Of a stretch of DNA of 64,000 nucleotides, positions 22,185 to 43,928 are shown one piece after another. The notes under the pieces were generated by a model. It did not search any database. It saw only the letters and a list, made by a program, of their open reading frames with translations, and was not told the DNA's origin. The number at the start of each line of letters is the position of its first letter. Positions within the stretch are counted from its first letter, which is position 1. Origin of the DNA: a virus (taxonomy: Duplodnaviria > Heunggongvirae > Uroviricota > Caudoviricetes); IMG/VR virus record IMGVR_UViG_3300035661_000046, positions 1 to 64,000 of that record; one strand, given 5' to 3'. A program made the translations under genes and the position numbers.

Positions 22185-22193
22185 CTTGAAACT

Positions 22194-22270: not shown

Positions 22271-22277
22271 ATATTTT

Positions 22278-22590: not shown

Positions 22591-22607
22591 AACTACCTAA
22601 AAATTAC

Positions 22608-23048: not shown

Positions 23049-23169
23049 GTGTATTTCCTTTTATTGAGTTAAAAAACTAAAAAATGAATTGACAGTTTTA
23101 CCTACTCTGACAAAGGTTAGCGAGAATGTATCTTCTCTAAATTTCTTATACCAAGTAAATTGACATTAT

Positions 23170-23373: not shown

Positions 23374-24397
23374 AGGTAATCCTGTCTAAATAATCAAAGT
23401 ACCATTTACGAGCTTTATTACTAACTGCACTGCCTACGTCTTTAGGCTCTAACCCCGACTCAACTATAGTATCGGTTTCCTCTTTAAGAATATCATTGTA
23501 AACCCAACGAACAAAGTCTCCTGTGCTTTTAACGTCAATGGCACGGTTGGTTTCCTTCAAGAAGGCTATGCTTTGTAGAAGTCTATTCTCTGTTACACAT
23601 TTCTCTAAGAAAGCTTCTATGGAAGCTACCTTCTCTAAGTCTACTGCTGCTAGAGTCTTAACTTTAGATGAGGAGTGTTTTTCTCCTTTGACCTTAAACC
23701 ATAGTTCACTAGTCTCTAGCCCAGGAGTAACACAAGACCATACTATTCCTTCTCCTGTTCCTTCTATGCCAAATGCCTTGCCTACCGGACAGCACTCTTC
23801 TACTTTAGTAGTCAGTTCAATTAAGGTATTCTGAGACAAAGCAGGGTTTTCAAAGTCAATAGAAATTGAGAATGTAGGGAAGTCGTGTATTAAATACGTT
23901 GATCTCTCTGGATATGATTTCAAGTCAGGAAAGTCTGAAGGATTATACCAAGTATCTCCTGCCATTATCTTGAAGATTACAAACATCTTTTTAAGTTTAG
24001 AAATGGCTACTCCTGCTTGAATTGATCCTCCACACCATTCTCCAAATAGAGTTAGTGGGCCTCTATACTTTATGGTTGATGAAACAATAGATGCAATCTC
24101 ATAAAAGTGATCTCCGTAAGACCTACCCCAGAAAGCAAATCCAGCATTATCATTTTCTACAGATAGTATTCTTTCTCTACTTTGAAAAGTAAGTCCTCCT
24201 AAAGGTCCTATTACTACTGCGGCATTAGTACCATGAAGTTTTACTGTCCCCTCAAAGTCTAGAACAGGCAATTTCTTAGTACGGTCGTATTTAAGCTCTC
24301 CTGCACTATCTACCCCGATAAATCTTGTCCTGCGATCTACTTTCTGTATTACGGTTCTAAACTGCTCTATTGATGGAAATTTAATATGTTCTTGCAT
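23366..24397 (-). CDS. RNA ligase 2-like (Rnl2 family) nucleotidyltransferase
   Basis: Motif I KLHGTN (T4 Rnl2 has KIHGTN) about 55 aa from the N-terminus. Further motifs FGEWCG and KVKG. 343 aa against 334 aa for T4 Rnl2. Confidence 0.65.
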   Translation of the reverse strand: MQEHIKFPSIEQFRTVIQKVDRRTRFIGVDSAGELKYDRTKKLPVLDFEGTVKLHGTNAAVVIGPLGGLTFQSRERILSVENDNAGFAFWGRSYGDHFYEIASIVSSTIKYRGPLTLFGEWCGGSIQAGVAISKLKKMFVIFKIMAGDTWYNPSDFPDLKSYPERSTYLIHDFPTFSISIDFENPALSQNTLIELTTKVEECCPVGKAFGIEGTGEGIVWSCVTPGLETSELWFKVKGEKHSSSKVKTLAAVDLEKVASIEAFLEKCVTENRLLQSIAFLKETNRAIDVKSTGDFVRWVYNDILKEETDTIVESGLEPKDVGSAVSNKARKWYFDYLDRITYE

Positions 24398-24399
24398 AA

Positions 24400-25572
24400 T
24401 TAATCCTCTGTGATCATAGGTAAAAAATCTTCTCCGGGAAGCCCAAGAAAAGACATGCCTTGTTTTATAACAAACTCTTTATAGTTGTTTTCTCTTCCTA
24501 TGTATAAGTTCATCATCAACCCCATTACCTCATGGTGCTCGGTGTTAGCCTTAATAGCGTATTCTTTACGGCCTAGACCTTTATTCTCTTCATAGAAATC
24601 TTCTACGGTTTTTACTAAGTGATTGAACTTTGGAATAACCATATCTTCCATTTTAGAAAGCTCGGCTAGCACCCAAGCATCATCTGAGAAAGCAGAACGT
24701 ATATCATCTGATAACTCATTTACTACTAACGCAAATAATTTACTAGGGGTTTGAATAGAGTCTTTGGATTGGTGTAACTGAATGTAGGCTAGATTTTTGA
24801 CTTTAACTAAGTAGGAGGTAGAGTCTTCTCTCACCATCTCTATTACGTAACCCTCTCCTTTTTTCTCTTTGCGTATTTCAGAGACTAGTGTAGATTGGTC
24901 TACTTGATATAACCAAGTAGAGTCATATAAGTCCTGGTAATGTACAATCTGATCTATTAGTGTAGAGTACCTAGACATCATCAAATAATTACGAAGTTCA
25001 CTACCAAATAGTGTGCCTCCGGTAGTATGGTTTCTCACAGATAATATAGTTAACTTGTCCTCAGAATATGGAACCACTATGCGATTGGTAGGGGAAGTAT
25101 ATTCTAAGTTTACAGTAATACCCTCCTCCGCAGCTAGAAGTAATTCCGATTTAAATCGTCTGTTCTCTTCCAGGTCTAACCAAGTCATTGCCGCTATAGC
25201 TTGGCTAGAGAATAAGTCTGCTTTGGATTTAAGTCGTAGTTGACCTTTATATAAATAAGTAGAGATCAAGGAGCCATCAAGCTTGTCCATCATTGTACCT
25301 ACTATACACAGAGTGTGGTCTACACCACCTTCTTCATAATTAAAAAATTTCTGGGGAGGCAGGCTGACAAGAACGGGGTTATTAATATCAGTAACATTAA
25401 ACATTGTGCCTCGGCAATCTAAGGCTCCAGGCTTTTGGAACTGTGTCCAAGAGGCTAATCGGTAGTTGAAGATGTTATATAGCTGGTCTTCTAGTACCAC
25501 CTCTTTGCGGTAGAAACTTTCATCTTCATTTACTAAAGCTATTAACGTTTTATACATGTAAGCCTCTCTCAT
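24400..25572 (-). CDS. RNA ligase 1-like (T4 RnlA/gp63 family)
   Basis: Motif I DKLDGSL (T4 Rnl1 has KEDGSL) at about residue 96. 390 aa against 374 aa for T4 Rnl1. Directly adjacent to the Rnl2-like gene. Confidence 0.6.
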   Translation of the reverse strand: MREAYMYKTLIALVNEDESFYRKEVVLEDQLYNIFNYRLASWTQFQKPGALDCRGTMFNVTDINNPVLVSLPPQKFFNYEEGGVDHTLCIVGTMMDKLDGSLISTYLYKGQLRLKSKADLFSSQAIAAMTWLDLEENRRFKSELLLAAEEGITVNLEYTSPTNRIVVPYSEDKLTILSVRNHTTGGTLFGSELRNYLMMSRYSTLIDQIVHYQDLYDSTWLYQVDQSTLVSEIRKEKKGEGYVIEMVREDSTSYLVKVKNLAYIQLHQSKDSIQTPSKLFALVVNELSDDIRSAFSDDAWVLAELSKMEDMVIPKFNHLVKTVEDFYEENKGLGRKEYAIKANTEHHEVMGLMMNLYIGRENNYKEFVIKQGMSFLGLPGEDFLPMITED

Positions 25573-26000
25573 CTATGGTGCTTTGCTGTATACAACAAAG
25601 TTATTTCACTAGCGGTTACTGTATTTACCATCGTTATGTGTTTAGTAGGAACCCATCCTGTAGGGCCATCATCTATCTTAGTAAGATAATCCCCCATAGG
25701 TAACACGCATACTCCTTCAGGAATTCTATCTTCGTCCAAAGGTAGGTATACTATTTCCATGTTGTTATATCTAGGCATAATATGTAGATAGTGTAAGCCC
25801 ACTGGGTGTATAGTAACACCATCTTCTAAATAGTTAAGTATGTATTCATGTACGCTATTAATAGCAGTGACAAAGTCCTTTCCAAGATTTGAAAGGGTAT
25901 GGTTATATAACGCTGGTATTATAGCCGATATACTTCCAGTAGACGGCTCCTGCGTCATACAAATGTAATAGGAATATCTAGGGTCTTCGTTAAAGTTCAT
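25569..26000 (-). CDS. hypothetical protein
   Basis: 143-aa ORF. Confidence 0.45.
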   Translation of the reverse strand: MNFNEDPRYSYYICMTQEPSTGSISAIIPALYNHTLSNLGKDFVTAINSVHEYILNYLEDGVTIHPVGLHYLHIMPRYNNMEIVYLPLDEDRIPEGVCVLPMGDYLTKIDDGPTGWVPTKHITMVNTVTASEITLLYTAKHHR

Positions 26001-26074
26001 TCTTACTCCTTATTAAATGAAAATCCCAGATGATTAGTCTGGGATTGTGTGGTGGAAAGTATTTGATTCGAAAG

Positions 26075-26308
26075 TTACTCTTTATGTGCATCAGCCAGCT
26101 TAGCTAAACCTTCTCCTACTCCATCGGCAAAATTTCTGTTATGGCACTCAATAAGCATAACTTTTGCTTTTCTAATAGTAGCTGCTCGGTGTCTATTCTG
26201 TTCAGCACAGAACTCGGTTACAACGTTTCTAGTCGGGGTAGATAACTCATCATACACGGCTATCTTCTGATCTAGAATATGCAATATAAAACTTAGTTCT
26301 TCATCCAT
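26075..26308 (-). CDS. hypothetical protein
   Basis: 77-aa ORF. Confidence 0.4.
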   Translation of the reverse strand: MDEELSFILHILDQKIAVYDELSTPTRNVVTEFCAEQNRHRAATIRKAKVMLIECHNRNFADGVGEGLAKLADAHKE

Positions 26309-26523
26309 TACGACGTCACCACAAGTTTAAAATCTGGATTTAACCAATATGGGACTTGTTCATATAGTGGTTTTTGCGTGGGAGTTATCGGTCCAATGGT
26401 CGGATTAGACATAGTTAGGTTATGTACCTCTATTCGTAGGGCAGTAACCTCTGCTCTTAGCTTAGATAACTCCTGTTTCATATCATTGACTTCTTCAGTA
26501 TCAAATACTTTTTCGTGTGGCAT
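26308..26523 (-). CDS. hypothetical protein
   Basis: 71 aa; coiled N-terminal half. Confidence 0.4.
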   Translation of the reverse strand: MPHEKVFDTEEVNDMKQELSKLRAEVTALRIEVHNLTMSNPTIGPITPTQKPLYEQVPYWLNPDFKLVVTS

Positions 26524-26541
26524 GTAATACTCTTTCTATAT

Positions 26542-26619
26542 TGGCACTCCCGTAGTGAATCGAACACCACTCAGTCTGGTTTGGAGCCAAACTCGCCTCG
26601 CCTTGGAACATGCGGGAGC
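26542..26619 (-). tRNA. probable tRNA-Trp (anticodon CCA) with an atypical, extended D-arm
   Basis: Acceptor GCTCCCG/CGGGAGT (G-U at 1:72), anticodon stem TTTGG/CCAGA (one G-U) with loop CTCCAAA, T-arm TGGTG TTCGATT CACTA, CCA encoded. The D-arm region (TGTTCCAAGGCGAGGCGA) does not fold canonically. Confidence 0.45.
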
Positions 26620-26679
26620 ATTGTTTAAGTCTTCTTACTAATGCTACTATGGAGCTGGCTCCATTTAAACTCCTAATTC

Positions 26680-26754
26680 TGGCAGTGGATACAGGGATTG
26701 AACCTGTGCATGACGGGATCAAAACCCGTTGCCTTTCCTCTTGGCTAATCCACA
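26680..26754 (-). tRNA. tRNA-Gln (anticodon TTG)
   Basis: Acceptor TGTGGAT/ATCCACT (1:72 mismatch), anticodon stem ACGGG/CCCGT with loop TTTTGAT, T-arm ACAGG TTCAATC CCTGT, CCA encoded. Confidence 0.7.
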
Positions 26755-26759
26755 CCTGT

Positions 26760-27056
26760 TCAAACTAATTTAGCAAAACGTCTAACTAAAAACATTAACC
26801 ATTTAGGGGCGTAAATTATAGCTGTAACCTGTGCCGGTAATACCTTCACGCCATTCATTCTAACGTGAAAAAACTCACTATAAGCATCCTGTGTTAATGA
26901 GAATACCGCCTCTGTTTCCGACCGGTTTAATTCATAAAATGCACAGTTAGTTATATACTGCCCCTTCTCCTCGGGGGTAGTCGTTGGTTTATAAACTAGG
27001 TCTATGATGTGTTTAGCACTAAGCCTATCAGTAAACGGTATTTTTTTCTCTATCAT
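26760..27056 (-). CDS. hypothetical protein
   Basis: 98-aa ORF. Confidence 0.45.
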   Translation of the reverse strand: MIEKKIPFTDRLSAKHIIDLVYKPTTTPEEKGQYITNCAFYELNRSETEAVFSLTQDAYSEFFHVRMNGVKVLPAQVTAIIYAPKWLMFLVRRFAKLV

Positions 27057-27244
27057 AAGGTTCTCATTACTAGACTATAGGAAAAGTAATAGCATAAGAC
27101 ATTCAAACACTCCCTTGATTATTACTAATTAATTATAGTGGAAGTATAGATAACGATCATAGTGGACGAATGTAGCTGCTTTACCAGCAGCTACACCTCA
27201 TTAACGGTCTACACTTCCTTCTAAACTATAAGGATTGTTACATT

Positions 27245-27469
27245 TTACTCGAATGCGCTATTATCAGCAAGGCTATCTTCTAAGTCATGTATATCCCCTA
27301 GTATTCTAATAGGCTCTGCTCTACCTACTACATATACCTCTATTACTGGTCTGAATCTACCACCTTCTTTTATAGGAGTCCCACACACAAGGTGTGTAAT
27401 TTGTTTAGCCATAATTGCTACAGAGGTAGGTATCGCCGTATCTGCTAGTACATATCCAATAATTTTCAT
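27245..27469 (-). CDS. hypothetical protein
   Basis: 74-aa ORF. Confidence 0.4.
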   Translation of the reverse strand: MKIIGYVLADTAIPTSVAIMAKQITHLVCGTPIKEGGRFRPVIEVYVVGRAEPIRILGDIHDLEDSLADNSAFE

Positions 27470-27492
27470 AGTCTATTCCTTTATTCAAACAT

Positions 27493-27524
27493 TAAAAAAC
27501 CCAGAGAAGTTTCCTAGTCTGGGT
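27493..27524 (-). terminator. rho-independent terminator (minus strand)
   Basis: Hairpin cccaga ctaggaaacttc tctggg followed by T6 in the minus sense. It sits downstream of the tRNA-like gene and upstream of 27245..27469. Confidence 0.65.
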
Positions 27525-27695
27525 ATCATTAGTTGCAAGTTAAAGTTGAACCTCTTTACTCCGAGTAATACCCTCCAATGTCCAGTGGATAATCTTGTGA
27601 GGGCCAAAACTGATTATTTAAGAGTGAGAGGTTCATGCTTTTTATTTTAATACACTTTTTTACGTTTTTCAACCATTTGTGAAAATAGTTTCAAG

Positions 27696-27768
27696 TGCCC
27701 TCAGAACGAATTGAACGCTCGACCTCTTGATTATAAATACAAGTGCTCTACCGCTGAGCTATGAGGGT
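27696..27768 (-). tRNA. aberrant tRNA-like gene (18-nt anticodon arm giving an 8-10-nt loop; A1:C72 mismatch; no encoded CCA)
   Basis: Canonical D-arm TAGCTCAGCGGTAGAGCA, variable loop AGGTC, T-arm GAGCG TTCAATT CGTTC and a 6-bp acceptor. The anticodon arm CTTG-TATTTATAAT-CAAG is one nt too long. A perfect extended -10 (TGGTATAAT) lies about 15 nt upstream. Confidence 0.5.
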
Positions 27769-27795: not shown

Positions 27796-29199
27796 CTAGA
27801 AGATAATGGAACTATTTTTCCTAACCGCATCAAAAGAGACACTCTTAACGAAACCTGGACGGTATACCTGAGTAAGCATATCCCTACCTCGGTTCTTCCC
27901 GGGTGTGATTCTATCACTATAGAAGCCAATACGATCATCCAAGAAAGTAGAAACTATTCCTCGTTTAGATGCCTTACCAGGATCAGTTTTAGGATCCTTG
28001 TACACATCTACTTCTACCCCATTCACGGTTACACTAGAGCATTTCATAGCCCACTTGAAGGTATCACGGTCTAAACGCTGCAGCAAGGCTCCGCCCATAC
28101 CAAAGGCTATATTATCAATAGAGAACATCTCTTTCAGCATCGCAGTTAAGATTTCTTCGATAGAGTCCATATTAACACCATCTCCTTGAATAATACGCAC
28201 GTTATTAAGTACCTTATAACCCTTAGAGTTTATGGTGTACCCGAATGACTTCTGTAAAGAGCGCAAGCAATACATAACCATGCTCTTTGGATTTCCTGAG
28301 TCGGGACGAAGTACTACTGTAGCACCAGAGTCAATAACCTCTTGTTTTAAATCACGACCCCAGATGACGTCTACTGCGTTATACATGTCGTAGGCATCTA
28401 CTACTACAGCAAAGTAAGCCCCAGGAACACCAAACTGCTTAATCATGTTAGAATAAGCTGCCTGCTCATAAGGCCGACCCCAGCTTGTTATAGTCGAGTG
28501 CTCTGCTGCAGGAATACTACCGGAAACAAAACCTTTAGCGTCATAGTTTCTGCGAAGCCAAGGTGTTGCTGCAATAGTATCAGAACCCATGAAGTTAACT
28601 AAGTGTGCTGCACCACCAACCTGGGATGTTTCATAGGATGAACAACCGCGACTTCCGAAGTCATGTAACTTGAAATTAATCTGACTGTCAGGATCATCAC
28701 TAGAAATAACAAGCCCGCGATAAATCATATCTTTAATCGTCTTACTTACTGTAGAGACAGTGCTGCCATACCAGATAGCTCGTAGTATCTGAGTTTCATA
28801 ATGGCCTGGTGCCCAGAATACTTTAGGGTCGATAGAATCTATACGAGCTACTGGCAAGTTAATAGGTACGTTAATACCTTCTTCTATAGCATGTATAGAA
28901 ATAGGTGCAAAACCACCATGCTCTTTAACAATGTATTCCCAAGCATCCTTCTTGAAAGGTACACCTTGCATTGCAAATTCTTCTGCAGCTTCCTCTACGT
29001 TGTCGAGCGTCGCTGGAGTAGAGAGATACTCCTTGATGTAACCTTGAAGACCAAACATTTGAGTCTTGTAAACACCTTGGATGGTTGAGCCTCGAGCTTC
29101 TACATAGGAACTCATGCTCGTTGTCCCTTTAGGGAACTGGTCTGGGTGACTTGGTTTATAGCTATCCGTATCCAAGATTGGATTGTAAGTTTGTTTCAT
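27796..29199 (-). CDS. nadV: nicotinamide phosphoribosyltransferase (NAMPT/NadV)
   Basis: N-terminus MKQTYNPILDTDSYKPSH is the hallmark of NadV/NAMPT (NPIL.TDSYK.SH). 467 aa is typical for the family. Confidence 0.85.
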   Translation of the reverse strand: MKQTYNPILDTDSYKPSHPDQFPKGTTSMSSYVEARGSTIQGVYKTQMFGLQGYIKEYLSTPATLDNVEEAAEEFAMQGVPFKKDAWEYIVKEHGGFAPISIHAIEEGINVPINLPVARIDSIDPKVFWAPGHYETQILRAIWYGSTVSTVSKTIKDMIYRGLVISSDDPDSQINFKLHDFGSRGCSSYETSQVGGAAHLVNFMGSDTIAATPWLRRNYDAKGFVSGSIPAAEHSTITSWGRPYEQAAYSNMIKQFGVPGAYFAVVVDAYDMYNAVDVIWGRDLKQEVIDSGATVVLRPDSGNPKSMVMYCLRSLQKSFGYTINSKGYKVLNNVRIIQGDGVNMDSIEEILTAMLKEMFSIDNIAFGMGGALLQRLDRDTFKWAMKCSSVTVNGVEVDVYKDPKTDPGKASKRGIVSTFLDDRIGFYSDRITPGKNRGRDMLTQVYRPGFVKSVSFDAVRKNSSIIF

Positions 29200-29211: not shown

Positions 29212-30267
29212 CTATAAAAAGTAATTGATGATATGAAGGTGATCTTCATAAAATTTGTGACTTAATTCTGGCAAAGCTGAGAATGGAACCCAGAATGCCT
29301 TCTTTGCATCGTCGCTACCTTTAACCTTGGGTAGCCCAGGAGTTAGGTCAGAGCCATCTAACCTAAATAAGAACGCATGAGTAATAGTTCTACCTCTAGA
29401 AGATCGGCCTGGAGAATCGAATACTTTAGAATCTCCTTTATTGGCATGATCTAGAACAGGTAGAGGGACTTTTAAACGAGTCTCCTCTCTTAACTCACGT
29501 AAAGCACAAGAGTATAACGTTTCGTTAGGATCAATGAAGCCCCCAGGTAAGGCATACAGTCCTTTGCCGGGAAATCCTCCTCGCTCTATTAAAAGAACAT
29601 GGCCATTCTTTATTACTACTGCGTCTGTTGTTACAAAGATTGGAGTATGTGGAGAACCTGCCCAAGCTTCTTTATATTCTCTAATAAAGGAGTCTTCTTC
29701 AAGCAGTAGATAGTACTCTTCTGAAAAAGCAAACTCTCTTAGAAAAGCTTCTGTACCCGTAGGTACTCTACTATAAACCGCAGCCTCACGCATTTTAGAA
29801 AGAGTATTTTCGTTAAAATACATACTCCGTAAAAGGCTGGCATTTATATCACCTGCTAGGCTACCAACTTCAACGTGAGGCCCCCATTGAGGGAATTCTA
29901 GTAAATATCCTGTATCTTCTTTTAGATGGCCTATTAGTTTTGGATTCTTAGCCTCAAGCAGTGAAACTACGTCGTTAACCTCCTCTTGGACTGATTCCAA
30001 CCATCGGTTGTTGGCATACAGGTAATCCTTTACTGCAACAAAGAATACTCTACTAGCAGAGTCCGGATCTAGAGAGCTAGTTATCATATTGATTCGCTCT
30101 TCATCACTAAAGGGATTTTTTAGACTCCTAGAGGACCTAGAGGACCCTAATACTATTATCACCTTGTCTGCTATATTCAGGGCCTCAAGCATAGTCGCCA
30201 TATGACCATTATGAAAGATCTGAAATCTTCCGATCATTATTAAAACTTCGTGTTTCTTATTTGACAT
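29212..30267 (-). CDS. natV: bifunctional NMN adenylyltransferase / Nudix hydrolase (NadM-Nudix, NatV-like)
   Basis: The N-terminal nucleotidyltransferase carries H-x-G-H (GRFQIFHNGH). The C-terminal Nudix box is GGFIDPNETLYSCALRELREETRL. Directly downstream of nadV, as in vibriophage KVP40. Confidence 0.8.
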   Translation of the reverse strand: MSNKKHEVLIMIGRFQIFHNGHMATMLEALNIADKVIIVLGSSRSSRSLKNPFSDEERINMITSSLDPDSASRVFFVAVKDYLYANNRWLESVQEEVNDVVSLLEAKNPKLIGHLKEDTGYLLEFPQWGPHVEVGSLAGDINASLLRSMYFNENTLSKMREAAVYSRVPTGTEAFLREFAFSEEYYLLLEEDSFIREYKEAWAGSPHTPIFVTTDAVVIKNGHVLLIERGGFPGKGLYALPGGFIDPNETLYSCALRELREETRLKVPLPVLDHANKGDSKVFDSPGRSSRGRTITHAFLFRLDGSDLTPGLPKVKGSDDAKKAFWVPFSALPELSHKFYEDHLHIINYFL

Positions 30268-31724: not shown

Positions 31725-31990
31725 TATTCATACCCCGTTATTTCACGAAGTTCATAACCAGGATCACCCTCCTCGAAAGTAGGAGCAGTAGCCTTAGCTG
31801 TGTTAGTTACGTATAACCAACGTGCAGTACGTGTACTTTGTAAAGCACAACCCTCTACGGTTGCAGGAATAAAATTACAATTACCGCACCCACACTTTCT
31901 AGTTCTGAGAAACTTCTTATTATTAGCCAAATCCTCAAAATACTCTAGAGGGTACAAGCTATCTGTAAAGTCTTCTACTTCTTGTTCCAT
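31724..31990 (-). CDS. small Cys-rich (zinc-binding) protein
   Basis: CGCGNC...C motif; 88 aa. Overlaps the start of the RuvC-like gene. Confidence 0.4.
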   Translation of the reverse strand: MEQEVEDFTDSLYPLEYFEDLANNKKFLRTRKCGCGNCNFIPATVEGCALQSTRTARWLYVTNTAKATAPTFEEGDPGYELREITGYE

Positions 31991-32563
31991 TATCTATTTC
32001 CTATTTTATTTATCATTGTTAATAAATCTTCTTGCGAAGAACCCCGATGTACTACTACCAAGTCTCCCCAGTTTGGCCCTATCTCTGCTTCAACTCCAAT
32101 TGGTAGGTCTAGCCAGTCAAAGGTTTCAACAGGGTAGTCTTCCATGTAATAGAAGGCTGTCTCTAGGACTTCAGCTGCGTGTTGTAGAGGACATTCTATT
32201 TCAATTGAGTCATAGACGGTACAGATGCACTTTGCACCAAACTTCTTTATAGCGTTATTTAAAGCTGTAAACACCACCAACCCTAATGTCGACGATGTAG
32301 ACTGTACCCTAACATTCTGAGAATTTCTTAATGCAGCATTATACACTGCAGTCTTCTTATACATTGGCAAAGTACCAAACTCCATCTTACGCTGTGCAAA
32401 AGGAGTATACACAAACTGGTTGTGCTTTGCCATTGCATGTGCATCTTCTACATATTTCTTAATAAGAGGGTATGTATCGAAGTACATGTTAATTAAAGTC
32501 TGAGCTTCTTCTTTAGAGATTCCCAGGTTCATTGCGACTCCTGCTACAGAGGAGCCGTATAAG
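31990..32563 (-). CDS. family A DNA polymerase, polymerase subunit, exon 2 (C-terminal part incl. motif C)
   Basis: GSSVAGVAMNLGISKEEAQTLINMYFDTYP corresponds to Pol I [37 protein letters not shown] is the motif C (HDE) region. The frame is open upstream of the tracked Met back to the predicted 3' splice site at 32563. Confidence 0.7.
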
Positions 32564-32827
32564 CACTTAGTCTACTACTTTCGTAATAGAGTGGACTATA
32601 CCATTACCCTTTTCTAAAACACGCTTTTACGAGGGTATTCGCCGTATTATACCTAGTTAAAGGTATCGCAGCAAGATCTGTTCTAGATCTTCTGTCAGTC
32701 TCTGAACCATTTATACCAATCCCTTGGTATTCTGGCTGCTGATTGCCATACCTAGTATCTAGGGTTAGGGTTCCAGCAATTGAGCGAATTTTTAATACAG
32801 CATTACTACCGTATGGCACCTAAGTTA
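32564..32827 (-). mobile_element. group I intron (ORF-less, 264 nt) in the DNA polymerase gene
   Basis: It interrupts Pol A between motif B and the following helix. Predicted P1: exon ggcaU paired with intron GUGCC (U-G at the splice site). The intron starts taacttag and ends ...ctaagtG. It shares four conserved blocks with the rtcB intron, including a P7-like AUAGUCC element. Confidence 0.65.
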
Positions 32828-33783
32828 ATGCCGAATGTTAACGCTTTTGCTGCTTGTCTATAACCCTTATACTCCTTATATAAGGGATGTCCGGGATTAT
32901 CGACGATAGAGATAAACTCATCGTAGTCTAACCTTCGCATTGCACTAGCCGAGAAGGAGTGGAAATCCTTACCTTCTTCAATAGCCTTAAGTAAAGTAGG
33001 ATCCTTACATAGCGCTCCTAGAATCTTTACTTCGGCACTAGAGAAGTCTAAAGCAATAAACACATTGCCATCTGCTACCTTAAAGCATCTACGTACATTA
33101 TACCCATGCTTAGGTCTAGGTAACTGAGTTAAGTTAGGGTTATCACCAGTTATACGGAAACTACTAGTTCCGTGTAGGTTATAAGAAGGATGTACTCTAC
33201 CATCAGGCTTAACGTGGTCTTCTACGTAAGTCTTAATAAAAGTACGGTGAGCACTAGCAATGTCATTGCGTTTTGCTATATCTGCCAAGTAAGGGATTCT
33301 AGCAGATTTAACCAAGGCGGCTAATGCATCACCATCAGTAGAAGGAGATCCTGTCTTAGTTAAGAAAGGTGGAGTCAATCCTAACTCTCCGTATAAGAAA
33401 TCGCCTAGTGCAGCTCCAGAGTCTAAGTCTACCGGATGACCAATCGCAGTAAAAATAGAATGTTCCAAAGAAGCAATCTCTGCTTCCATTTGACGATTCA
33501 TTTGTCTATTAAGCTCGATGTCATACTCAATGCCATTGAGTTCTAAGTCACAGATAAACTCAAAAGCTGGCATTTCGTATTTGCGTATTGCTTCTAGTAT
33601 AGAAGGAATCTTACCCTTTGTTAATTTCCCATGAGTAGAAGTTACATACAGGGGTTGCTCAATAATTCTGGGAAAAGTAGCAGCCAGTATTTCTGAGGTT
33701 GTAATGCAGTCTATACCCGCGTACAGTAGCAAGTCTTCAACTGGATAATCTTCATATGTGTTATATATCGGTTTTTGTTCCAT
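32828..33783 (-). CDS. family A DNA polymerase, polymerase subunit, exon 1 (palm/fingers incl. motifs A and B)
   Basis: Motif A ALDFSSAEVKIL (DYSQIELR-like) and motif B RQAAKALTFGI(LYG). The tracked ORF reads into the intron and stops after ...FGINLGAIR. Confidence 0.7.
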
Positions 33784-34123
33784 TGGCTTTTTTATGCTCC
33801 TGTACTATTTCCTGAAACCTATCTAAAATTAAAGCGTCTCTAGTAGCCAAGTTGCTTAGCTCATTTTCCAACTCAGAAAGCATCTCTTCGGTATCTTCAG
33901 CTAAACCCATTAAAGTAGGCTCCATAAATCTAAGAGTATCTAGCTGAGCTTTAATACCACTAGCCTGAGCTAGGATATGTGCACTCTCCACTATGATGTT
34001 CTCTGCTTCTCTACTACCCAAGCTTTTTACTAAAGCAAGGATTACTTCATGAGGATCAATATCATCTTCTCCTGCTGTTACCTCTACTGCGTCCTCTACT
34101 TCTACTGGTTTAAACTTACTCAT
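33761..34123 (-). CDS. hypothetical acidic protein lying between the exonuclease and polymerase genes
   Basis: 120 aa; ATGA-type overlap with the exo gene stop, and a 23-nt overlap with the pol start. Confidence 0.45.
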   Translation of the reverse strand: MSKFKPVEVEDAVEVTAGEDDIDPHEVILALVKSLGSREAENIIVESAHILAQASGIKAQLDTLRFMEPTLMGLAEDTEEMLSELENELSNLATRDALILDRFQEIVQEHKKANGTKTDI

Positions 34124-35366
34124 CTATCTCATCCTCACTTTCATTATTATTAACTAACTTAGTTAATTTTGGTAGTTTATCTTCATAACCCCCAAGACCT
34201 GTATGTGGTATCCAATCCCATACAGCTCGTTTAAGACCATAGTTCTTATTAAGTCCAGAGTTTATGTTATGAAGAATTAGCATCGTGTCGAACACGATTC
34301 CTTGTATTCTAACACCGGTACAGCACATAGTGTATAAAACATCAAACTTTATGTTATGCCCGACTTTCTTAATGTCAGGGTTTAGTAGAATCTTTGCAAT
34401 ATATTCCCAGGCTATGTGTGGATGGAACCACGTATTTTCTCTATGCCACAGAGGTATTACTAAAGCTTCAATATACCCCTCTGCCGTTCTATACCCAAAC
34501 TGAGCAGTTATTATCTTTGCTGAGTTAGAGAAAGGATCTAGGCCGGTAGTTTCTAAGTCGAAGCTTATTACAGAAGTACTAGGCAGGTTTGAAAGAATAT
34601 TAGTGAAGGTAACTACCTCACTTATAGATCTGGCTATTTTGATATGTTTAGAATACCTCTCTAACGCATCTGCCAGTTTAGGAACCACCAGAGCTCCTCT
34701 AGCTAGCCTACTAGCCTTCTCGAAGTCCCGATCTATCACTTCTAAGAAATCCGTCCCCCACATCTGTCCTGATGAGTTCTGACGTATCATAGTAGTTACT
34801 TTAGGATGCAAAGTGATTACCACGTTAGAGACAAAGTCATTACTGTGTATTTCTCCTCGGTTAGCCGTGTTACTCACTGTACTAAACCCAAGTTCCTTAG
34901 TCACCGCCGTGGTTAGACTTATTATTACTTTTGGGTTAGCCCTACGTATCTCTTCTAGTAAGTACGGGGCACATCTTCTAAGCACTGTCTGAGCGGGGGC
35001 TTTACCCTTGTTTATATCTAAGCCTTTTATCTCGCACTTAGTCAAGTTAGTAGTACGGTAAGAAAGCTTTGAAAAATGCTTAATAGCTAAGTAGTTAATA
35101 ATGTTACTGTGGATTTGGTTTATTTCATCTCCCGTGTAGAAACCCTCAGTAAAGGCTCGGTGATCCTGTATTATTAAGATGTCTACGGGAGTGTGATTGA
35201 GAAGTACTAGGTCAGGAGTTTTACATTTCAGTGTACACACTTTGTTACAGTAGCTAGTAGAGATCTGAGAGAAATCCTCTTTCTGAATTATTGCTGATTT
35301 TACCGCAGGAGTTATCTTAGGTCTGTTGTATAAATCTGATAAAGGTAAATCTATTAATTTTGCCAT
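34116..35366 (-). CDS. 3'-5' proofreading exonuclease protein (DnaQ-like domain of a split family A polymerase)
   Basis: Exo I VISFDLETTGLDP, Exo II GHNIKFDVLY and a YxxxD-like region near the C-terminus. It is encoded as a separate ORF from the polymerase domain. Confidence 0.65.
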   Translation of the reverse strand: MAKLIDLPLSDLYNRPKITPAVKSAIIQKEDFSQISTSYCNKVCTLKCKTPDLVLLNHTPVDILIIQDHRAFTEGFYTGDEINQIHSNIINYLAIKHFSKLSYRTTNLTKCEIKGLDINKGKAPAQTVLRRCAPYLLEEIRRANPKVIISLTTAVTKELGFSTVSNTANRGEIHSNDFVSNVVITLHPKVTTMIRQNSSGQMWGTDFLEVIDRDFEKASRLARGALVVPKLADALERYSKHIKIARSISEVVTFTNILSNLPSTSVISFDLETTGLDPFSNSAKIITAQFGYRTAEGYIEALVIPLWHRENTWFHPHIAWEYIAKILLNPDIKKVGHNIKFDVLYTMCCTGVRIQGIVFDTMLILHNINSGLNKNYGLKRAVWDWIPHTGLGGYEDKLPKLTKLVNNNESEDEIDE

Positions 35367-35470
35367 ATTGTTGTTTTTCTAAAAAAGTTAGTATCTCACA
35401 TAAGGAAGTCGAAGTAAATCCCGAGGTTTTAATACAAGGATCACCTCGAGTATACAGATGTTCCTATAGT

Positions 35471-35480
35471 ACTTATACCA
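35471..35480 (-). promoter_or_regulatory. extended -10 promoter motif copy upstream of the exonuclease gene
   Basis: acttatacca about 105 nt upstream of the 35366 start. Confidence 0.4.
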
Positions 35481-35489: not shown

Positions 35490-36090
35490 AGAGTTATGAC
35501 TACTTGCACTGTAATTTTGTCCAGCCTGGACATGGCATGTCCCATCTAGAAAACACTTTGTCCACCTGTTTTCTTAATCAAATCATAGACTTACCTCACT
35601 TCTGGACAAAAAGACACGTGGACATTCAAAACAATATAACAAGTATTAAAAATAAGAATATCACTATAAGAATATTTCAAGGACAAAAGACAATCAGACA
35701 TTCAAAATATAAGCTACTTTGTGGAGAATGAAATACCACTATGAATTATGAATTATTGTTAACACCCTCTCTTATATATATAAATATACTTTTTAATTAA
35801 CTATATATATAAGGGATGGCTTTTTAGCCCAAAACAAATTTTTATGGCTAGAATATATTTCTCACAAAGTGTCTTATATTTTGAATGTCTGGTTGTCTTT
35901 TGTCTTGAAATATTTTTTATAGTGATATTCTTTTTTTTAATACTTGTTATATTGTTTTGAATGTCCACGTGTCTTTTTGTCCAGAAGTGAGGTAAGTCTA
36001 TGATTTGATTAAGAAAACAGGTGGACAAAGTGTCTTTTCGATGGGACATGGCATGTCCAGGCTGGACAAAATTATGCCTTTTTCTTTATA
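35490..36090. repeat. ~600-bp palindrome: ~215-bp inverted-repeat arms (over 90% identical) flanking a ~150-bp AT-rich core; candidate replication origin
   Basis: Arm 35505-35720 is the reverse complement of 35865-36085 (tttgtccagcctggacatg.catgtccca ... cagacattcaaaatataag). The arms carry repeated TGTCCA/TGGACA and GACATTCAAAA motifs. The core has nested TATATATA palindromes. It lies between the polymerase and primase-helicase genes. Confidence 0.7.
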
Positions 36091-36384
36091 AGCTATTGTT
36101 TATTAAAGATAAATAGTTTTGAGAAATGTCCGTCGCTGGGCACTTCCACCACGCGCTATATCAGTATTGGCAGTGCTTTTCAGAACTAAGGCAGTATTTC
36201 TTATTCTTCCAGCTTATCGTCTATACCTACAGCTTTTCTAAGTCGACAGGATACTATTAAGAGAATAGTGGTAGGAGCCTCTAAATGATCCTAGGATCGA
36301 TTTATTTACTTTTAATGGATACTTACATAGGTTTACCAAACTAACCCTCCTACGGCCTTTTCTCCTCTATATTTAAAGTGCACC

Positions 36385-36423
36385 TAAAAAAGAAACCCCG
36401 CCTGGTGTGGGCGGGGTTTTAGT
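36385..36423. terminator. strong rho-independent terminator (bidirectional geometry)
   Basis: GC hairpin aaaccccgcc tggtgtg ggcggggttt with an A-run before and a T-run after. In the minus sense it lies downstream of 36445..36753. Confidence 0.75.
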
Positions 36424-36444: not shown

Positions 36445-36753
36445 TTAAGCAGGTCGGTGAATCTTAGCTTTCTTGGCATATACTGCACGAGGAGTAAAAC
36501 TAAAGTTCACAGAGAGTAATCCTCTATCATAAGCAGCACGAACAGCATAGAACTCATCATCTGCAGTAACAACTCCTAACAGAGGAGGAACGCCCCATTT
36601 CTCATTCCAGTTATCTGGATAGATCTTATATAGATTCTTACCAGATATTGGGTATGGACCAATTCCTAAGTTTGGTTTAAAGGGTCTACGAACAGCTGGA
36701 GTAGACGACTGAGTTTGATTCTGGTTTCTATTAGTATGGTTATTTGTTTTCAT
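36445..36753 (-). CDS. hypothetical protein
   Basis: 102 aa, Asn/Gln-rich N-terminus. Confidence 0.45.
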   Translation of the reverse strand: MKTNNHTNRNQNQTQSSTPAVRRPFKPNLGIGPYPISGKNLYKIYPDNWNEKWGVPPLLGVVTADDEFYAVRAAYDRGLLSVNFSFTPRAVYAKKAKIHRPA

Positions 36754-36759: not shown

Positions 36760-39573
36760 TTAAGTCAAATCAAAGAAGTTGGCAATATTCTGCACCGTTT
36801 CAGGAGCAGTATCTAAGTCTAATACAGTTACGCGTCTTTGTACAGAGTTTAATCCTAAATTTTTCTTACACTCTGCAACAAAATACTTTTCTTCTCGTAA
36901 GGCGCCTAATATTGCACCCTTAGAGAAGTCCTCTCTTGGGCCACGCTGTTCTGCTTGTACTATGTTAAACACAGCGGGAAACCAGATGTATAGTTTATTA
37001 CCCTCTTTACGCATATGATCCACGGTAATCTTGGGCCGCTCTCCTACTTGTAAAGTCTCTACAAAGTTAAAGAACTGTAAAACCATATCCTCTTTCTCCT
37101 GCTCAATCGTATCCTCTTTAGATATATTTGAGACGTATGTTGTAAAATCAAAAGTAGGAAAATACTTCTCTGCAAACTGCTTTGCAAAATACCCCACTGA
37201 TGCCCAGTTTTTAGAAGTTCTAGATTTACATCCCCCCTGCTTGATAAAACTTTCAAACTCTAATATTTCCTGTATAAGTTCGACCTTATCTACTTTTGTA
37301 GAATCCACTATCCACTTGGCTCCTATTGCAGAAAGGTCAGCCTTCATGTCTTCTATAACAGCATACGACTCAACTGTCTCCCTACCATGAATAGGAATTC
37401 GGATTGGGACACATCTCTGCCTTGTAGCACTATCAGCAAACTGGTCTTGGCCAACAAAGATAAAGTTAGACTTAACCAGCTGACTGCGTATTCCAAAACC
37501 TTCTCTTGTACCCATATCTCTAGAAGCACGATGGAACCAAGTGCGGAATGTACCCTGTAAGTCTACCGTTTCTCTATCGCTACGAATCTCATCGAGAATC
37601 ATAGGCAAGGATGCATAGTATGCAATCTTACGACTATATCCAACACCTGACTTAAAGGTAGGCACTGTACCAAACCCAGACTCTTCCATGTTAAACAGAG
37701 ATAATAACCAACGAGCTATATGAGTCTTACCTTCTCCTTGTCTACCCCAAAAGAATAGAAAAGGAATAGATCCATACTTACGGTGAATGAAATCAGAATA
37801 CACATTCATCTTTATCCAGCCCATCATGGTTAGAACCATACCGATGTCACCTAAGTTCCTAGCAAGTTGAAGTACAAAAGTCTTTTCCATCTCCTCTACT
37901 TCATCAGGGTCCATGCTGCAGTTTATGAATGGAATATCTAGCCTATCCTCTGCTTTAGAAGTAGCACCTGTATCTAGCGACACTGGCTTAATACCTGCTG
38001 CTGTACCACCTAGCCACATAATACCATCTTTATCAGGCTCAATGATTTTACCTGTTTCTGAGATGAAGCAGTTGCGGAATAACCACCCTTTGAACTCAGG
38101 AATTCTACCTACAGTAGTCGGTAAGTGAACTTCATTCTCCTTGCCTGTAGCGTAGATATAGTCCCATAGGGTAGCTAAGTCATCTTCTCTACCGTAGAAG
38201 GATGCATCTATAGCGTTAGCAAGCAGAGCCTTAAAGGCTTTAAGAGATACCTTAACTTCAGAAGTAACTCGGATAGACCTACTCTTTCTACCATCCTCTC
38301 GAATAATCTGAACCTCACGTTCTCTCATCTCTCCTTGAATAAAGATATTCTTTAGATCGACTTTGAAGTTGGTTAGTTTATTCTCGATAGGTAAGCCATC
38401 CTTCCAGCGAATTTTATAGTAGCAGTTATTCCTGAGAATAATATTGCCACGCCCTTCTACCTCTACTTCCGAACCTTCTGAGTCTGTATTTGTACTAGAG
38501 GTATTAACCACAGCTCCAAATACTTTTATTACTTCCGGTAGACTACTAAGACCTTTCTTAAGACACTCATCAATGTCTTTAACGCCGTCTAGTCCGATCT
38601 TAACCTGCACTAATGACTTTAGCTTTGGACGGACCTTCTCCATTTTCGCACGGTACTTATCCCCAGCATCATCAGAGTCAAAGATGGTAATGATATTCTT
38701 ATCCGATAGGTGATCCACTACCCATTGAACTTGAGCTCCACTAAGTTGCCCAATAGAACCGATAACACCGTACATGGAAGAGGCAGGGTCTTCCATAACA
38801 CTTAATAAGTCATTCTCTCCCTCAACCATTATTACAGTATCTTTTGTAGAGATTGTATCCTGGCCGTAGAAGGTATGCTGGTTAAGCTGAAACTTATTAG
38901 GTAGTTGATACTCCTTTACCTTCATTGGGTCTTTGAAAGTAAAGTGGGAGACTCGGCCTTTTACTAAATGAGCGTAAATAAATACTCGGTGTGGAAGAAA
39001 ATCTCCAGTGCCTTTCTTATTTACTAACCCTGTTTGAATTAGTAAGTCTTGACTAAAACCAAGACTATCTAAGTACTGAACTAGCTTACCGTCTGACCAA
39101 CCAACTTTCATATTGGTTAGTGTGGATAGAGAGTGCTTTCTCACGTCAGTCTGATACTCAAGAGGTGTCATGCTCAATAACTCTTGCATTGGCTTATTAG
39201 ACTCATCTACTAAACAGTTATGATAGTAGTCTGCTGCTAGATTGAAAATCTCCTGTGCAGGAGAATAGTCATTTGGTATTTGAATACTAAAGTCTTTTGC
39301 TATCTTTAACGCTGCTTCTCTGGGAGTTAGCGATAAGAGCTTACCTACAAATCCTATTGCGTCCCCTGTCTCATCACAGCTAAAGCACTTATAGAAAGCA
39401 GGCTCTTCCTCACTTTCTTCGTCTTTGACCTTAAAGCAATCATTATGACCGCAGAAAGGGCAAGACTTATCCTCTAATTGATATGTGTTTGTGCCACACT
39501 CTACTACCTCCGAATTAGCATATTTAGAAATCACCTCTTTGAGGTCTACGTTTGATTTTATTACTTCGAACAT
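36760..39573 (-). CDS. bifunctional DNA primase-helicase
   Basis: N-terminal zinc-binding CPFCGHNDCF...CFSCDETGD (primase Zn-ribbon). TOPRIM motifs IMVEGENDLLSV and FDSDDAGDKY. C-terminal Walker A GRQGEGKTHIARWL and Walker B-like ILDEIR. 937 aa. Confidence 0.75.
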   Translation of the reverse strand: MFEVIKSNVDLKEVISKYANSEVVECGTNTYQLEDKSCPFCGHNDCFKVKDEESEEEPAFYKCFSCDETGDAIGFVGKLLSLTPREAALKIAKDFSIQIPNDYSPAQEIFNLAADYYHNCLVDESNKPMQELLSMTPLEYQTDVRKHSLSTLTNMKVGWSDGKLVQYLDSLGFSQDLLIQTGLVNKKGTGDFLPHRVFIYAHLVKGRVSHFTFKDPMKVKEYQLPNKFQLNQHTFYGQDTISTKDTVIMVEGENDLLSVMEDPASSMYGVIGSIGQLSGAQVQWVVDHLSDKNIITIFDSDDAGDKYRAKMEKVRPKLKSLVQVKIGLDGVKDIDECLKKGLSSLPEVIKVFGAVVNTSSTNTDSEGSEVEVEGRGNIILRNNCYYKIRWKDGLPIENKLTNFKVDLKNIFIQGEMREREVQIIREDGRKSRSIRVTSEVKVSLKAFKALLANAIDASFYGREDDLATLWDYIYATGKENEVHLPTTVGRIPEFKGWLFRNCFISETGKIIEPDKDGIMWLGGTAAGIKPVSLDTGATSKAEDRLDIPFINCSMDPDEVEEMEKTFVLQLARNLGDIGMVLTMMGWIKMNVYSDFIHRKYGSIPFLFFWGRQGEGKTHIARWLLSLFNMEESGFGTVPTFKSGVGYSRKIAYYASLPMILDEIRSDRETVDLQGTFRTWFHRASRDMGTREGFGIRSQLVKSNFIFVGQDQFADSATRQRCVPIRIPIHGRETVESYAVIEDMKADLSAIGAKWIVDSTKVDKVELIQEILEFESFIKQGGCKSRTSKNWASVGYFAKQFAEKYFPTFDFTTYVSNISKEDTIEQEKEDMVLQFFNFVETLQVGERPKITVDHMRKEGNKLYIWFPAVFNIVQAEQRGPREDFSKGAILGALREEKYFVAECKKNLGLNSVQRRVTVLDLDTAPETVQNIANFFDLT

Positions 39574-42807: not shown

Positions 42808-43005
42808 TCATGATTCTGTGTTCTCCATCTTAATTGTTATGGCTAGTCTATTAGTAGCCAGGAACTCTGCCTTCTTTATTCCTGGATTCATTACTGCCGC
42901 AAGAATACCATCTAAGGCATCAATCTCATCCTTATCATTAGGTTTAGAGGCTTCCAGAAACAATGTTCTTAAATCACCTTTTGCTATAACGTCTATCTTT
43001 ATCAC
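42808..43005 (-). CDS. hypothetical small protein
   Basis: 65 aa. Its composition is more protein-like than the overlapping + strand ORF 42800..43030. Confidence 0.3.
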   Translation of the reverse strand: MIKIDVIAKGDLRTLFLEASKPNDKDEIDALDGILAAVMNPGIKKAEFLATNRLAITIKMENTES

Positions 43006-43073
43006 TCTAACTTCTCCTTTTATTAATTAATAATGATTATATTCTAGCATCTATATTATAAGTATGCAACTAT

Positions 43074-43928
43074 TTGTTGAACTTTAATAAAAGTGTGCTA
43101 TATTCTAGTAATCACATTATAGAGGACAAAATGGATTTATCAAAATATTATGAACAAATATGCAAACACCCAATACTAACTAGAGAAGAAGAGTTTATTC
43201 TGTGTAGCAAGTACGTATCTCCAGACACCCCTGAAGAAGACAAAGCAGGTATACGAGACACTATTATAAATGCAAATCTAAGATTCGCTTTTAAGACAGC
43301 TAAGAACTATTCCAGAAACGATCCTTCCATGTTTGAATATTTAATCTCGGCAGGAAATGAAGGTCTATTAGTAGGGCTAGAGAAGTATAACCCTACTAGA
43401 GATGTACGCTTCCTAAGCTATGCAGGGTGGTGGGTAGTTCAGCGCATTCTAAATGAAATGTCTCAGATGAGAATAGTGTCCCTACCTATATGGAAGCAAC
43501 AGCTATCCTCTAGAATTCTTAAATTTAAAGACGCAAATGAAACAGCTACCTTTGAAGATATAAAAGCTGCATTCCCAGACATATCTGAAAAGTACATTAG
43601 AGAGTTGCATGAGACCAGGTACCTGACCTACTACATTGAAGATATGGATGAGCATAACTTCCTTATTAATCCAATAGAAGCTCAAGTAGAGAAAGCTATG
43701 GATAATGAGCTACTAGGTAAAGCTATGCAAGAGATGTCTCAGATTCACAGAGATATACTTATTTTTTCATTTGGTTTTCACGAAGAGAATGGAAAAGAAA
43801 TGTCTCCTATTTCAATAGCTAAAAAATTAGGTATAACTAGGGATCAGTTTAAAGAATATAAAAAAGAAGCTATGGATATTCTGAGAGATAAGCTAAATGT
43901 AGAAATAGAAGTAGAAGACCCAGATTAA
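43074..43928 (+). CDS. sigma-70-family RNA polymerase sigma factor
   Basis: Region 2-like YLISAGNEGLLVGLEKYNPTRDVRFLSYAGWWVVQRI and region 4-like HTH SIAKKLGITRDQFKEYKKEAM. 284 aa. It is the only convincing + strand gene within the minus block. Confidence 0.75.
   Translation: MLNFNKSVLYSSNHIIEDKMDLSKYYEQICKHPILTREEEFILCSKYVSPDTPEEDKAGIRDTIINANLRFAFKTAKNYSRNDPSMFEYLISAGNEGLLVGLEKYNPTRDVRFLSYAGWWVVQRILNEMSQMRIVSLPIWKQQLSSRILKFKDANETATFEDIKAAFPDISEKYIRELHETRYLTYYIEDMDEHNFLINPIEAQVEKAMDNELLGKAMQEMSQIHRDILIFSFGFHEENGKEMSPISIAKKLGITRDQFKEYKKEAMDILRDKLNVEIEVEDPD

Follow-up and report, generated by a model that had tools for sequence, protein, structure and literature searches.

What is the function of a long palindrome that separates the DNA polymerase and primase-helicase genes of a large phage? 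We addressed this question for a 64,000-nt stretch from an uncultivated large phage (IMG/VR record IMGVR_UViG_3300035661_000046). This entire stretch is hereafter called the window, and its numbering is used throughout. The initial annotation had described a palindrome of about 600 bp at this locus and proposed it as a candidate replication origin. Repeat detection recovered the inverted repeat and corrected its size to 563 bp. The candidate-origin reading is favoured by arrays of short boxes around an AT-rich core, by the position of the element in a terminator-promoter gap, by a neighbouring gene for a protein resembling the Cch and Rep helicases of staphylococcal mobile elements, and by the recurrence of such elements in related phages. 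On the basis of sequence and analogy, we estimate a probability of about 65% that the element is a bidirectional replication origin, of the type in which self-loading Rep helicases act on iterons placed on both sides of an AT-rich core.

The element comprises two inverted arms of 212 nt each, located 139 nt apart. The earlier description put their complementarity above 90%; the measured value is 197 of 212 positions (93%). A base-by-base listing gives 15 mismatches, grouped at 35535-35552 and 35653-35715, while a 100-bp block (35553-35652) is perfect between the arms. The window contains no other long inverted repeat. The ungapped palindrome score is 179 for the element against a background of 11-15 (about 40 related loci), and its single-stranded DNA is predicted to fold with an energy of -233.9 kcal/mol (z = -46). 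The features of the element are listed below, with the strand where one applies.

35512-35723: left (polymerase-side) arm, with 7 GGACA/TGTCC boxes and 2 GACATTCAAAA units
35863-36074: right (primase-side) arm, 93% identical to the reverse complement of the left arm
35724-35862: spacer of 139 bp, AT-rich and only partly symmetric; candidate DNA-unwinding element
35765-35819: symmetric core, consisting of CCCTCTCTTATATATATA, 19 nt and TATATATATAAGGGATGG; it shares its axis with the arms and overlaps the least stable 60-mer
35518-35543: outer box cluster TGTCCAGCCTGGACATGGCATGTCCC, with 3 GGACA half-sites in alternating orientation that form two overlapping 15-bp palindromes
36043-36068: mirror copy of the outer box cluster
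35559-35564, plus strand: TGTCCA box, with a mirror copy at 36022-36027
35593-35601: second conserved arm motif ACCTCACTT, once per arm, with its mirror AAGTGAGGT at 35985-35993
35604-35631: composite repeat GGACAAAAAGACACGTGGACATTCAAAA, mirrored at 35955-35982
35681-35707: second copy of the composite repeat, GGACAAAAGACAATCAGACATTCAAAA, at 76-bp spacing from the first and mirrored at 35879-35905

The element is not an assembly artefact, because two independent contigs from other Joint Genome Institute (JGI) samples, L059 and L050, span the whole palindrome and are identical to the window across it (L numbers denote loci compared with the window). Over their full lengths, identity to the window is 100% for L059 and 99.99% for L050, which has a single-nucleotide polymorphism outside the element. 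The same element sequence is therefore present in three independent metagenome assemblies. No match to the region was obtained by megablast or blastn among 50,697 phage records, and a diagnostic 25-mer of the element had zero exact matches in IMG/VR and in GTDB genomes. A second, smaller inverted repeat is present at 12078-12216, with 36-nt arms of 89% complementarity and a 67-nt spacer; it is intergenic, between the minus-strand open reading frames (ORFs) 11586-11876 and 12227-12772.

These searches bear on whether the element is a foldback or miniature inverted-repeat transposable element (MITE)-like mobile element that was inserted between the two operons. Its long terminal inverted repeats and short overall length would suit such an origin. 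However, it is present as a single copy in the window, neither copies among the phage records nor the 25-mer in the viral and genome collections were found, the arm ends lack a target-site duplication, and relatives have counterparts downstream of the primase gene. We regard this explanation as highly improbable.

Both arms are densely populated by short boxes. The initial annotation had pointed to iterated TGTCCA/TGGACA motifs, and 10 of the 27 such hexamers in the window fall within the element; each arm contains 5, compared with 0.057 expected (P about 5e-9). The left arm contains 7 GGACA/TGTCC pentamers, whereas 0.17 would be expected (P about 8e-10), and the right arm has 6 GGACA boxes. 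Of the boxes in the two arms, 10 are exact TGGACA/TGTCCA hexamers, and AGACA variants are also present. All exact hexamer boxes are identical from arm to arm. The mismatches are mostly in the spacers between boxes, and that at 35681 degrades one box. The near-palindrome GGACATGGCATGTCC and the repeat GACATTCAAAA that had been reported for each arm were also recovered, the former once in each arm and the latter twice in each arm with no exact copy elsewhere.

The arrangement of the boxes differs between the outer and inner parts of the arms. Taken together, the outermost boxes read TGTCCAGCCTGGACATGGCATGTCC, which comprises three alternately oriented half-sites. The inner boxes have one shared orientation per arm and are part of a composite unit, GGACAAAA(A)GACA..(G)GACATTCAAAA, with a 76-bp period. 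In the left arm, the four inner boxes (35604, 35620, 35681 and, as the AGACA variant, 35696) read (G)GACA, and in the right arm their counterparts read TGTC(C/T). Box direction is opposite on the two sides because the element is palindromic. The ACCTCACTT motif is also present in the arms of three relatives (L063, L066, L070).

One part of the earlier description did not hold, namely the resemblance of the boxes to DnaA boxes. Sites matching TTWTNCACA with at most one mismatch number 2 in the element compared with about 1.5 expected, and the core that is repeated is GGACA. A DnaA-dependent origin was rejected on the grounds that TTWTNCACA is about as frequent in the element as its window-wide density predicts and that the TTTGTCCA boxes do not fit it.

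The centre had been described as very AT-rich and similar to a DNA-unwinding element, and the measurements agree. AT content reaches 0.70-0.84 in 50-bp windows, and nearest-neighbour energies place the least stable 60-mer of the entire window at 35751-35810, inside the centre. Three of the five least stable 60-mers of the window are inside the element. The core presents two outward-facing TATATATATAAG(A/G)G motifs, and relatives have the same type of core. These outward TATATA..AGAGG motifs, like ACCTCACTT, may have an auxiliary role, for example as melting boundaries, primer starts or activating promoters. At a length of 100-150 bp, the least stable stretch of the window is 43005-43160. This stretch precedes and overlaps the start of 43074-43928, which encodes a sigma-70 region 2 protein and is the sole plus-strand gene nearby. 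It was rejected as an alternative origin, being the promoter region of the sigma-factor gene and having no box arrays.

The palindrome also contains two mirrored ORFs, at 35504-35731 (plus strand, 75 aa) and 35801-36049 (minus strand, 82 aa). Translation confirmed that their peptides are nearly identical, as reported earlier. That two genuine mirror-image small proteins are encoded here has little in its favour apart from the existence of these ORFs, and its probability is negligible. Their codon-usage log-odds are about -0.01 per codon, compared with 0.15-0.38 for the real genes of the phage, small ones included. Neither ORF has a ribosome-binding site or matches a Pfam or PHROG family, and one begins with TTG. 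In addition, both contradict the logic of transcription direction in the region, and the equivalent DNA in relatives consists of non-coding box arrays. We conclude that the symmetry of the palindrome generates these ORFs and that they do not code for protein, as the initial annotation had proposed.

The flanking genes and terminator are as originally described, with the terminator now mapped to a narrower interval. Beyond about 3.7 kb, the long ORFs are nearly all on the minus strand. The palindrome occupies the gap between the terminator of the primase operon and the promoter of the polymerase operon, and the neighbouring features are listed below from the primase side to the polymerase side.

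36760-39573, minus strand: predicted fusion of a DnaG-type primase and a Cch/SaPI-Rep-like MCM-type helicase, 937 aa with Walker A motif; predicted initiator
36445-36753, minus strand: 102-aa protein with no assigned function, conserved directly downstream of the primase in many relatives
36393-36419, minus strand: intrinsic terminator at the end of the primase operon, with a 10-bp stem containing 7 G-C pairs followed by a T run
36075-36392: unexplained stretch of 318 bp between palindrome and terminator
35471-35480, minus strand: promoter -10 element TGGTATAAGT of the polymerase operon, which fits a recurrent promoter motif and is outside the palindrome
34116-35366, minus strand: first gene of a split family-A DNA polymerase, with a UDG-like domain and a 3'-5' exonuclease

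The origins of Staphylococcus aureus pathogenicity islands (SaPIs) provide the model for this interpretation. They are located just downstream of rep and consist of 6-12 penta- or hexanucleotide iterons that an AT-rich centre divides; two or more iterons per side point in opposite directions (PMC9371898, PMC7581432). Their Rep protein is a self-loading initiator-helicase that binds the iterons through a C-terminal winged helix and probably loads as a pair of hexamers, one per side; in SaPI5, pri and rep are fused (PMC9371898, PMC7581432). The element has the corresponding properties, with a number of iterons in the range of 6-12, an AT-rich centre with the boxes split 7/6, at least two opposed iterons per side, and a neighbouring gene for a predicted MCM-like self-loading helicase.

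Identification of this helicase depended on structure prediction, since sequence-profile searches found only the DnaG part. The N-terminal third of the 937-aa protein contains a DnaG-type Zn ribbon and a Toprim domain. The remaining residues, about 580, match no Pfam family even at E<=5 and no PDB sequence, and a profile search of the primase family against the PDB found the DnaG part alone. An AlphaFold2 model built from 26 homologues has a mean predicted local distance difference test (pLDDT) score of 84. The best structural match of the C-terminal half of this model is the Cch/SaPI-Rep class of MCM-like helicases. Weaker fold matches include MCM, SaPI5 PriRep, NrS-1, poxvirus D5/E5, papillomavirus E1 and large T antigen. 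The Walker A motif is conserved throughout the family, which comprises at least 286 homologues at E<=1e-20 and is mostly metagenomic. On the basis of the model, the proteins annotated as "DNA primase" in this family can be provisionally re-annotated as a DnaG primase fused to a Cch/SaPI-Rep-like self-loading initiator-helicase.

The position of the element upstream of the polymerase operon raises the alternative of a transcriptional control region. The GGACA boxes would then be operators bound by a regulator of the phage, and either the TATATATAAG core or the outward TTGTCC-N16-TATGAT sites of the arms would be divergent promoters, for example in a switch that times expression of the polymerase operon. 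The outward sites in each arm are sigma-70-like (9 of 12 matches), and the outward TATATA..AG(A/G)G core motifs are conserved in relatives. Against this, the polymerase operon is served by a standard TGGTATAAGT promoter of its own, located outside the palindrome. That promoter belongs to a recurrent extended -10-like motif, TGGTATAAG(T/A), which has at least 11 copies with 0-1 mismatch, on the minus strand only; the copies checked against the ORF list all sit just upstream of genes. Their minus-strand positions include 8423, 9870, 10965, 13130, 20316, 23144, 35471, 42785, 47823 and 52011, and the motif also precedes the polymerase gene in relatives L053, L054-L057, L062 and L065. No TGGTATAAG(T/A) promoter lies inside the palindrome. 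Promoter-like matches in the region number 3 compared with 6.9 expected by chance, and GGACA boxes are absent from all other promoters in the 64-kb window. TATATATAAG is not enriched elsewhere in the window and was rejected as a general phage promoter for this reason. We consider a control region unlikely, and a promoter role is also compatible with a transcription-activated origin.

The same transcriptional layout bears on another alternative, in which the arms would pair in a transcript as a 212-bp stem; such a long hairpin RNA might be, for example, an RNase III substrate, an antisense RNA or an anti-defence RNA. In its favour, the stem is predicted to be very stable, and transcription could conceivably read through the upstream terminator. 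However, that terminator is strong and directly upstream, and there is no phage-type promoter inside the element. Rfam searches of the element at gathering and permissive thresholds gave no gathering-level match, the best hit having E >=0.19, far below threshold. In addition, relatives keep the boxes and AT-rich core, many of them with only short or 75-85% identical arms, such that the long stem is not conserved. A hairpin RNA is accordingly very unlikely.

To determine whether the candidate origin recurs, we compared the locus with those of relatives that have 27-73% primase identity to the window phage. The family has two cultured groups, namely Vibrio phage D69 together with isolates D181 and D148, which are nearly identical to it, and Salmonella phage Arash. 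Counterpart elements are located downstream of the primase cluster, usually right after a terminator. The following were distinguished.

D69, OZ195729 about 125,061-125,392: palindrome of about 330 bp, imperfect, whose boxes are GTTACA and TGTTGCAATGT and whose centre is TATATATA
Arash, OQ632216 about 100,123-100,358: GTTACA boxes in 23-nt inverted arms, with a 112-bp AT-rich core containing CCCTTATATAAG
L008: TTTGGCCAG boxes; a TATATA centre lies between a single pair of inverted arms, which are 20 nt long and separated by 139 nt
L056: TGCCAA/TTGGCA boxes
L047: GTGGACAA direct repeats, mostly at 11-bp spacing, beside an AT-rich block; inverted TGTCCA boxes are also present
L015: four GGGACAGT boxes, one of them inverted, past the terminator; the contig ends about 160 bp further on

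In an unbiased search, 300-bp windows downstream of the primase were screened in 32 IMG/VR loci for the non-AT hexamer that was repeated most often. A hexamer cluster was found in 13 of the 32, and TGGACA was the top hexamer in nine of these; in the remaining four it was GTCCAA, TGACCA or GGCTAC. Every cluster is accompanied by a 50-mer of 72-94% AT. Significant inverted arms accompany eight of the 13 clusters, with lengths of 59-150 nt, identities of 75-85% and spacers of 146-410 bp. A core motif, CTCTATATATA..TATATAAGAGG, is common to the window and relatives. Overall, related elements with lineage-specific arms are situated 0-3.1 kb downstream of the primase gene: the arms of L078 begin 47 nt past the stop codon, and elsewhere the distance is 0.8-3.1 kb. 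In D69, the hypothetical proteins VPHD69_0232 and VPHD69_0231 are mirror ORFs within the palindromic element (L001:12462-12761, OZ195729) and are probably not genes.

The arms resemble each other far more than they resemble those of relatives. Local alignment scores between arms are 41-189 within a genome and 8-35 between genomes, close pairs excepted; the element as a whole thus diverges, but its two halves remain similar to each other. Quartet tests indicate that homogenisation of the arms is episodic rather than continuous. The close pair L065/L068 has 12 shared (orthologous) arm differences and one concerted site, and on this basis continuous gene conversion was rejected; the other close pairs gave 4 shared and 3 concerted sites, and 0 and 3, respectively. 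The 93% identity of the arms in the window probably reflects a recent conversion event.

Assemblies of close relatives tend to end at this locus, as long inverted repeats cause breaks in short-read assemblies. In the closest relative (73% primase identity), the 54 nt that end the primase-side contig are the exact reverse complement of the start of the polymerase-side contig, and both contig ends are rich in TTTGTCC boxes. Contigs of L051, L061 and L062 also break here. L051 is a strain-level variant, identical over 3 kb on the polymerase side, in which the centre and inner arm parts (1-215, compared with 35653-35933 of the window) are flipped relative to the polymerase side. A flipped model of the alignment has 14 mismatches, compared with 40 for the window orientation; the crossover is at the edge of the perfect 100-bp block, and there are about 12 extra differences in the flipped part. 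This could be a real flip-flop inversion or an ambiguity of the assembly graph across the perfect block.

The L051 arrangement and the long-term concerted evolution of the arms could point to a recombination or inversion element, in which the 212-nt arms drive flip-flop of the centre or provide a hotspot or entry site for packaging or for replication that depends on recombination. A PD-(D/E)XK nuclease gene is located nearby. However, the flip in L051 is indistinguishable from de Bruijn graph ambiguity, and three other assemblies agree with the window orientation. The larger genes tested within about 10 kb yielded no site-specific recombinase domain, and packaging sites are usually near terminase genes. 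Inversion is also an expected by-product of any long inverted repeat, and leaves the box arrays and AT-rich core unexplained. We therefore view recombination as the primary function of the element as quite doubtful.

If the element is a Rep-type origin, initiation may proceed as follows. The 937-aa primase-helicase would recognise the GGACA boxes of both arms, probably through its C-terminal winged-helix-like domain. One helicase ring would assemble on each arm, in opposite orientations, and the two rings would melt the TATATA-rich core between them. The helicases would then travel outward, while the fused DnaG-type primase would prime synthesis for the split family-A polymerase encoded next door. 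The length (212 nt) and similarity (93%) of the arms, which do not argue for coding, probably arose because recombination or gene conversion occasionally homogenised the two halves. A stronger proposal is that palindromy is itself functional and actively maintained across the family. The origin would then act as a long foldable structure, for example through TATATA-nucleated extrusion of a cruciform or hairpin that aids loading of the two helicases, with the centre flipping between isomers by arm-to-arm recombination, as a prokaryotic-virus counterpart of herpesvirus oriL. We put this forward as speculative and rather unlikely.

Several observations weigh against assignment of the element as a Rep-type origin. 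The element is downstream of the primase on the same strand, and is 686 bp from the stop codon rather than adjoining it; the 102-aa gene, the terminator and the 318 bp of unexplained DNA intervene. No such element is present between primase and polymerase in L053, L054, L055 and L057. The winged-helix-like domain is probable from predicted secondary structure only, residues 865-919 of the model having a helix-helix-strand-strand pattern, and recognition of the GGACA boxes by the primase-helicase is inferred. Box sequence does not simply track primase phylogeny, and a comparison of the C-terminal recognition helix with box sequence, made in only nine phages, allowed no relation to be drawn. The GC-skew check suggested in the initial annotation showed no inflection or sign change at the element; change-point analysis of GC and AT skew likewise gave no signal there, with the best change point at about 48.5 kb. 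The skew test is weak because the genes of the phage are all on one strand, and GC skew neither supports nor excludes an origin.

Other features of the locus and window were also recorded. The stretch at 36075-36392 has a higher GC content and yielded no convincing ORF, Rfam match or similarity to relatives; in the closest relative, a pair of small genes occupies this position. The 102-aa protein has no Pfam or PHROG match, and may be a replisome or origin accessory factor. Its motif is YPDYW..WG..P.LG.VYADDEF.A.RAAYD..LLP.N.TFGP, and homologues are encoded at L003:3151-3429, L006:7541-7768 and L015:14946-15170. On the other side of the primase-helicase gene, several relatives have, just upstream, a small gene that matches Pfam Acb5 (PF26761) (L008:9687-9956, L054:821-1084, L055:304-564).

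The polymerase is encoded by several ORFs, comprising 34116-35366 (UDG and exonuclease), 33761-34123 (120 aa), 32806-33783 (N-terminal part) and 31990-32532 (C-terminal part), and its gene is interrupted by a group I intron (Rfam RF00028, 67.9 bits) at 32572-32837 on the minus strand. In several relatives, a hairpin and a subsequent U run are present in the polymerase 5' leader, from promoter to start codon (L054:4900-4950, L008:14050-14130, L056:4870-4910). This hairpin could be an attenuator or autoregulatory site; the leader of the window, at 35367-35470 on the minus strand, has a weaker hairpin only. Seven tRNA genes (Leu, Gly, Met, Arg, Trp, Gln, Ile) are located at 20880-27768 on the minus strand. 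Near them are NAD-salvage genes, encoding a NAMPT-like protein (27796-29199) and a fusion of a cytidylyltransferase-like domain, possibly of NMNAT type, with NUDIX (29212-30267). The window starts with five tandem 60-bp units (aagctttactgagtcttctagtcaaggtcagactgcttca..., 1-300), which probably encode a 20-aa repeat of a protein whose gene extends past the window edge.

Very few large virulent phages have a known replication origin, and such origins hardly ever appear in annotations. The present analysis provides a concrete origin prediction for a large, mostly uncultivated phage family with two cultured groups. If true, it would extend the Rep-ori module of satellites and cassettes to phages of 170-200 kb. 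The long inverted repeat also explains the assembly breaks observed at this locus in related phages. Long palindromes are targeted by SbcCD and trigger Lamassu/DdmABC (PMC11707656, PMC12663957). The persistence of one here is notable because such host systems attack this DNA; if palindromy is maintained, it would carry a cost imposed by SbcCD- and Lamassu-type systems.

Among known systems, the element and its neighbouring gene can be compared with the Pri, Rep and ori modules of SaPIs and other phage-inducible chromosomal islands (PICIs), and with Cch/Cch2 of the staphylococcal cassette chromosome SCCmec. These systems use an MCM-like self-loading initiator-helicase, the best structural match of the C-terminal half of the window protein, and their primase is encoded with the helicase or fused to it, as in SaPI5 PriRep. 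They likewise have a downstream origin in which iterons of 5-6 nt are oppositely oriented around an AT-rich centre (PMC9371898, PMC7581432). There are also clear differences. The replicon of the window is a large, apparently virulent phage (its relatives are 170-200 kb), as opposed to a satellite or cassette of 15 kb. Its fused primase is DnaG-type, with Zn ribbon and Toprim, and there is no detectable sequence similarity to Rep or Cch. The predicted origin is 686 bp from the gene instead of abutting it, and arms of 212 nt with 93% identity far exceed what iterons need.

A similar logic applies in the core origins of simian virus 40 (SV40) and papillomaviruses, where inverted penta- or hexanucleotide sites beside an AT tract load two head-to-head hexameric helicases. 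The study of Cch2 itself draws this analogy (PMC7581432). The initiators of these viruses, E1 and large T antigen, are among the weaker fold matches of the window protein. Unlike the element studied here, their origins are about 64 bp and belong to eukaryotic viruses, and the DNA-binding domain is N-terminal.

The oriL of herpes simplex virus 1 (HSV-1) is a near-perfect palindrome of 144 bp without a long spacer, with an AT-rich centre and inverted sites for an origin-binding helicase. It is located between replication genes, including that for DNA polymerase; the flanking genes are divergent and the initiator, UL9, is a superfamily 2 (SF2) helicase. The window element resembles it in being a long palindrome with an AT-rich centre between replication genes, without an evolutionary link. 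The ori of phage lambda, situated within the O gene, has iterons beside an AT-rich region and recruits host DnaB. In P4, primase, helicase and origin-binding functions are combined in a single protein, alpha, which has an archaeo-eukaryotic-type primase and a superfamily 3 (SF3) helicase and acts on short repeats in both orientations (ori/crr). Lambda ori and P4 ori/crr share with the window element iteron arrays beside an AT-rich region, and neither has a long palindrome.

By mechanism and protein fold, the closest known system is hence the SaPI/Cch Rep-ori module; by DNA geometry, it is oriL and the SV40/papillomavirus core origins. What would be new here is the occurrence of Rep-type origin logic in large virulent phages, with the helicase fused to a DnaG-type primase, and an origin stretched to a palindrome of 300-560 bp whose halves evolve in concert.

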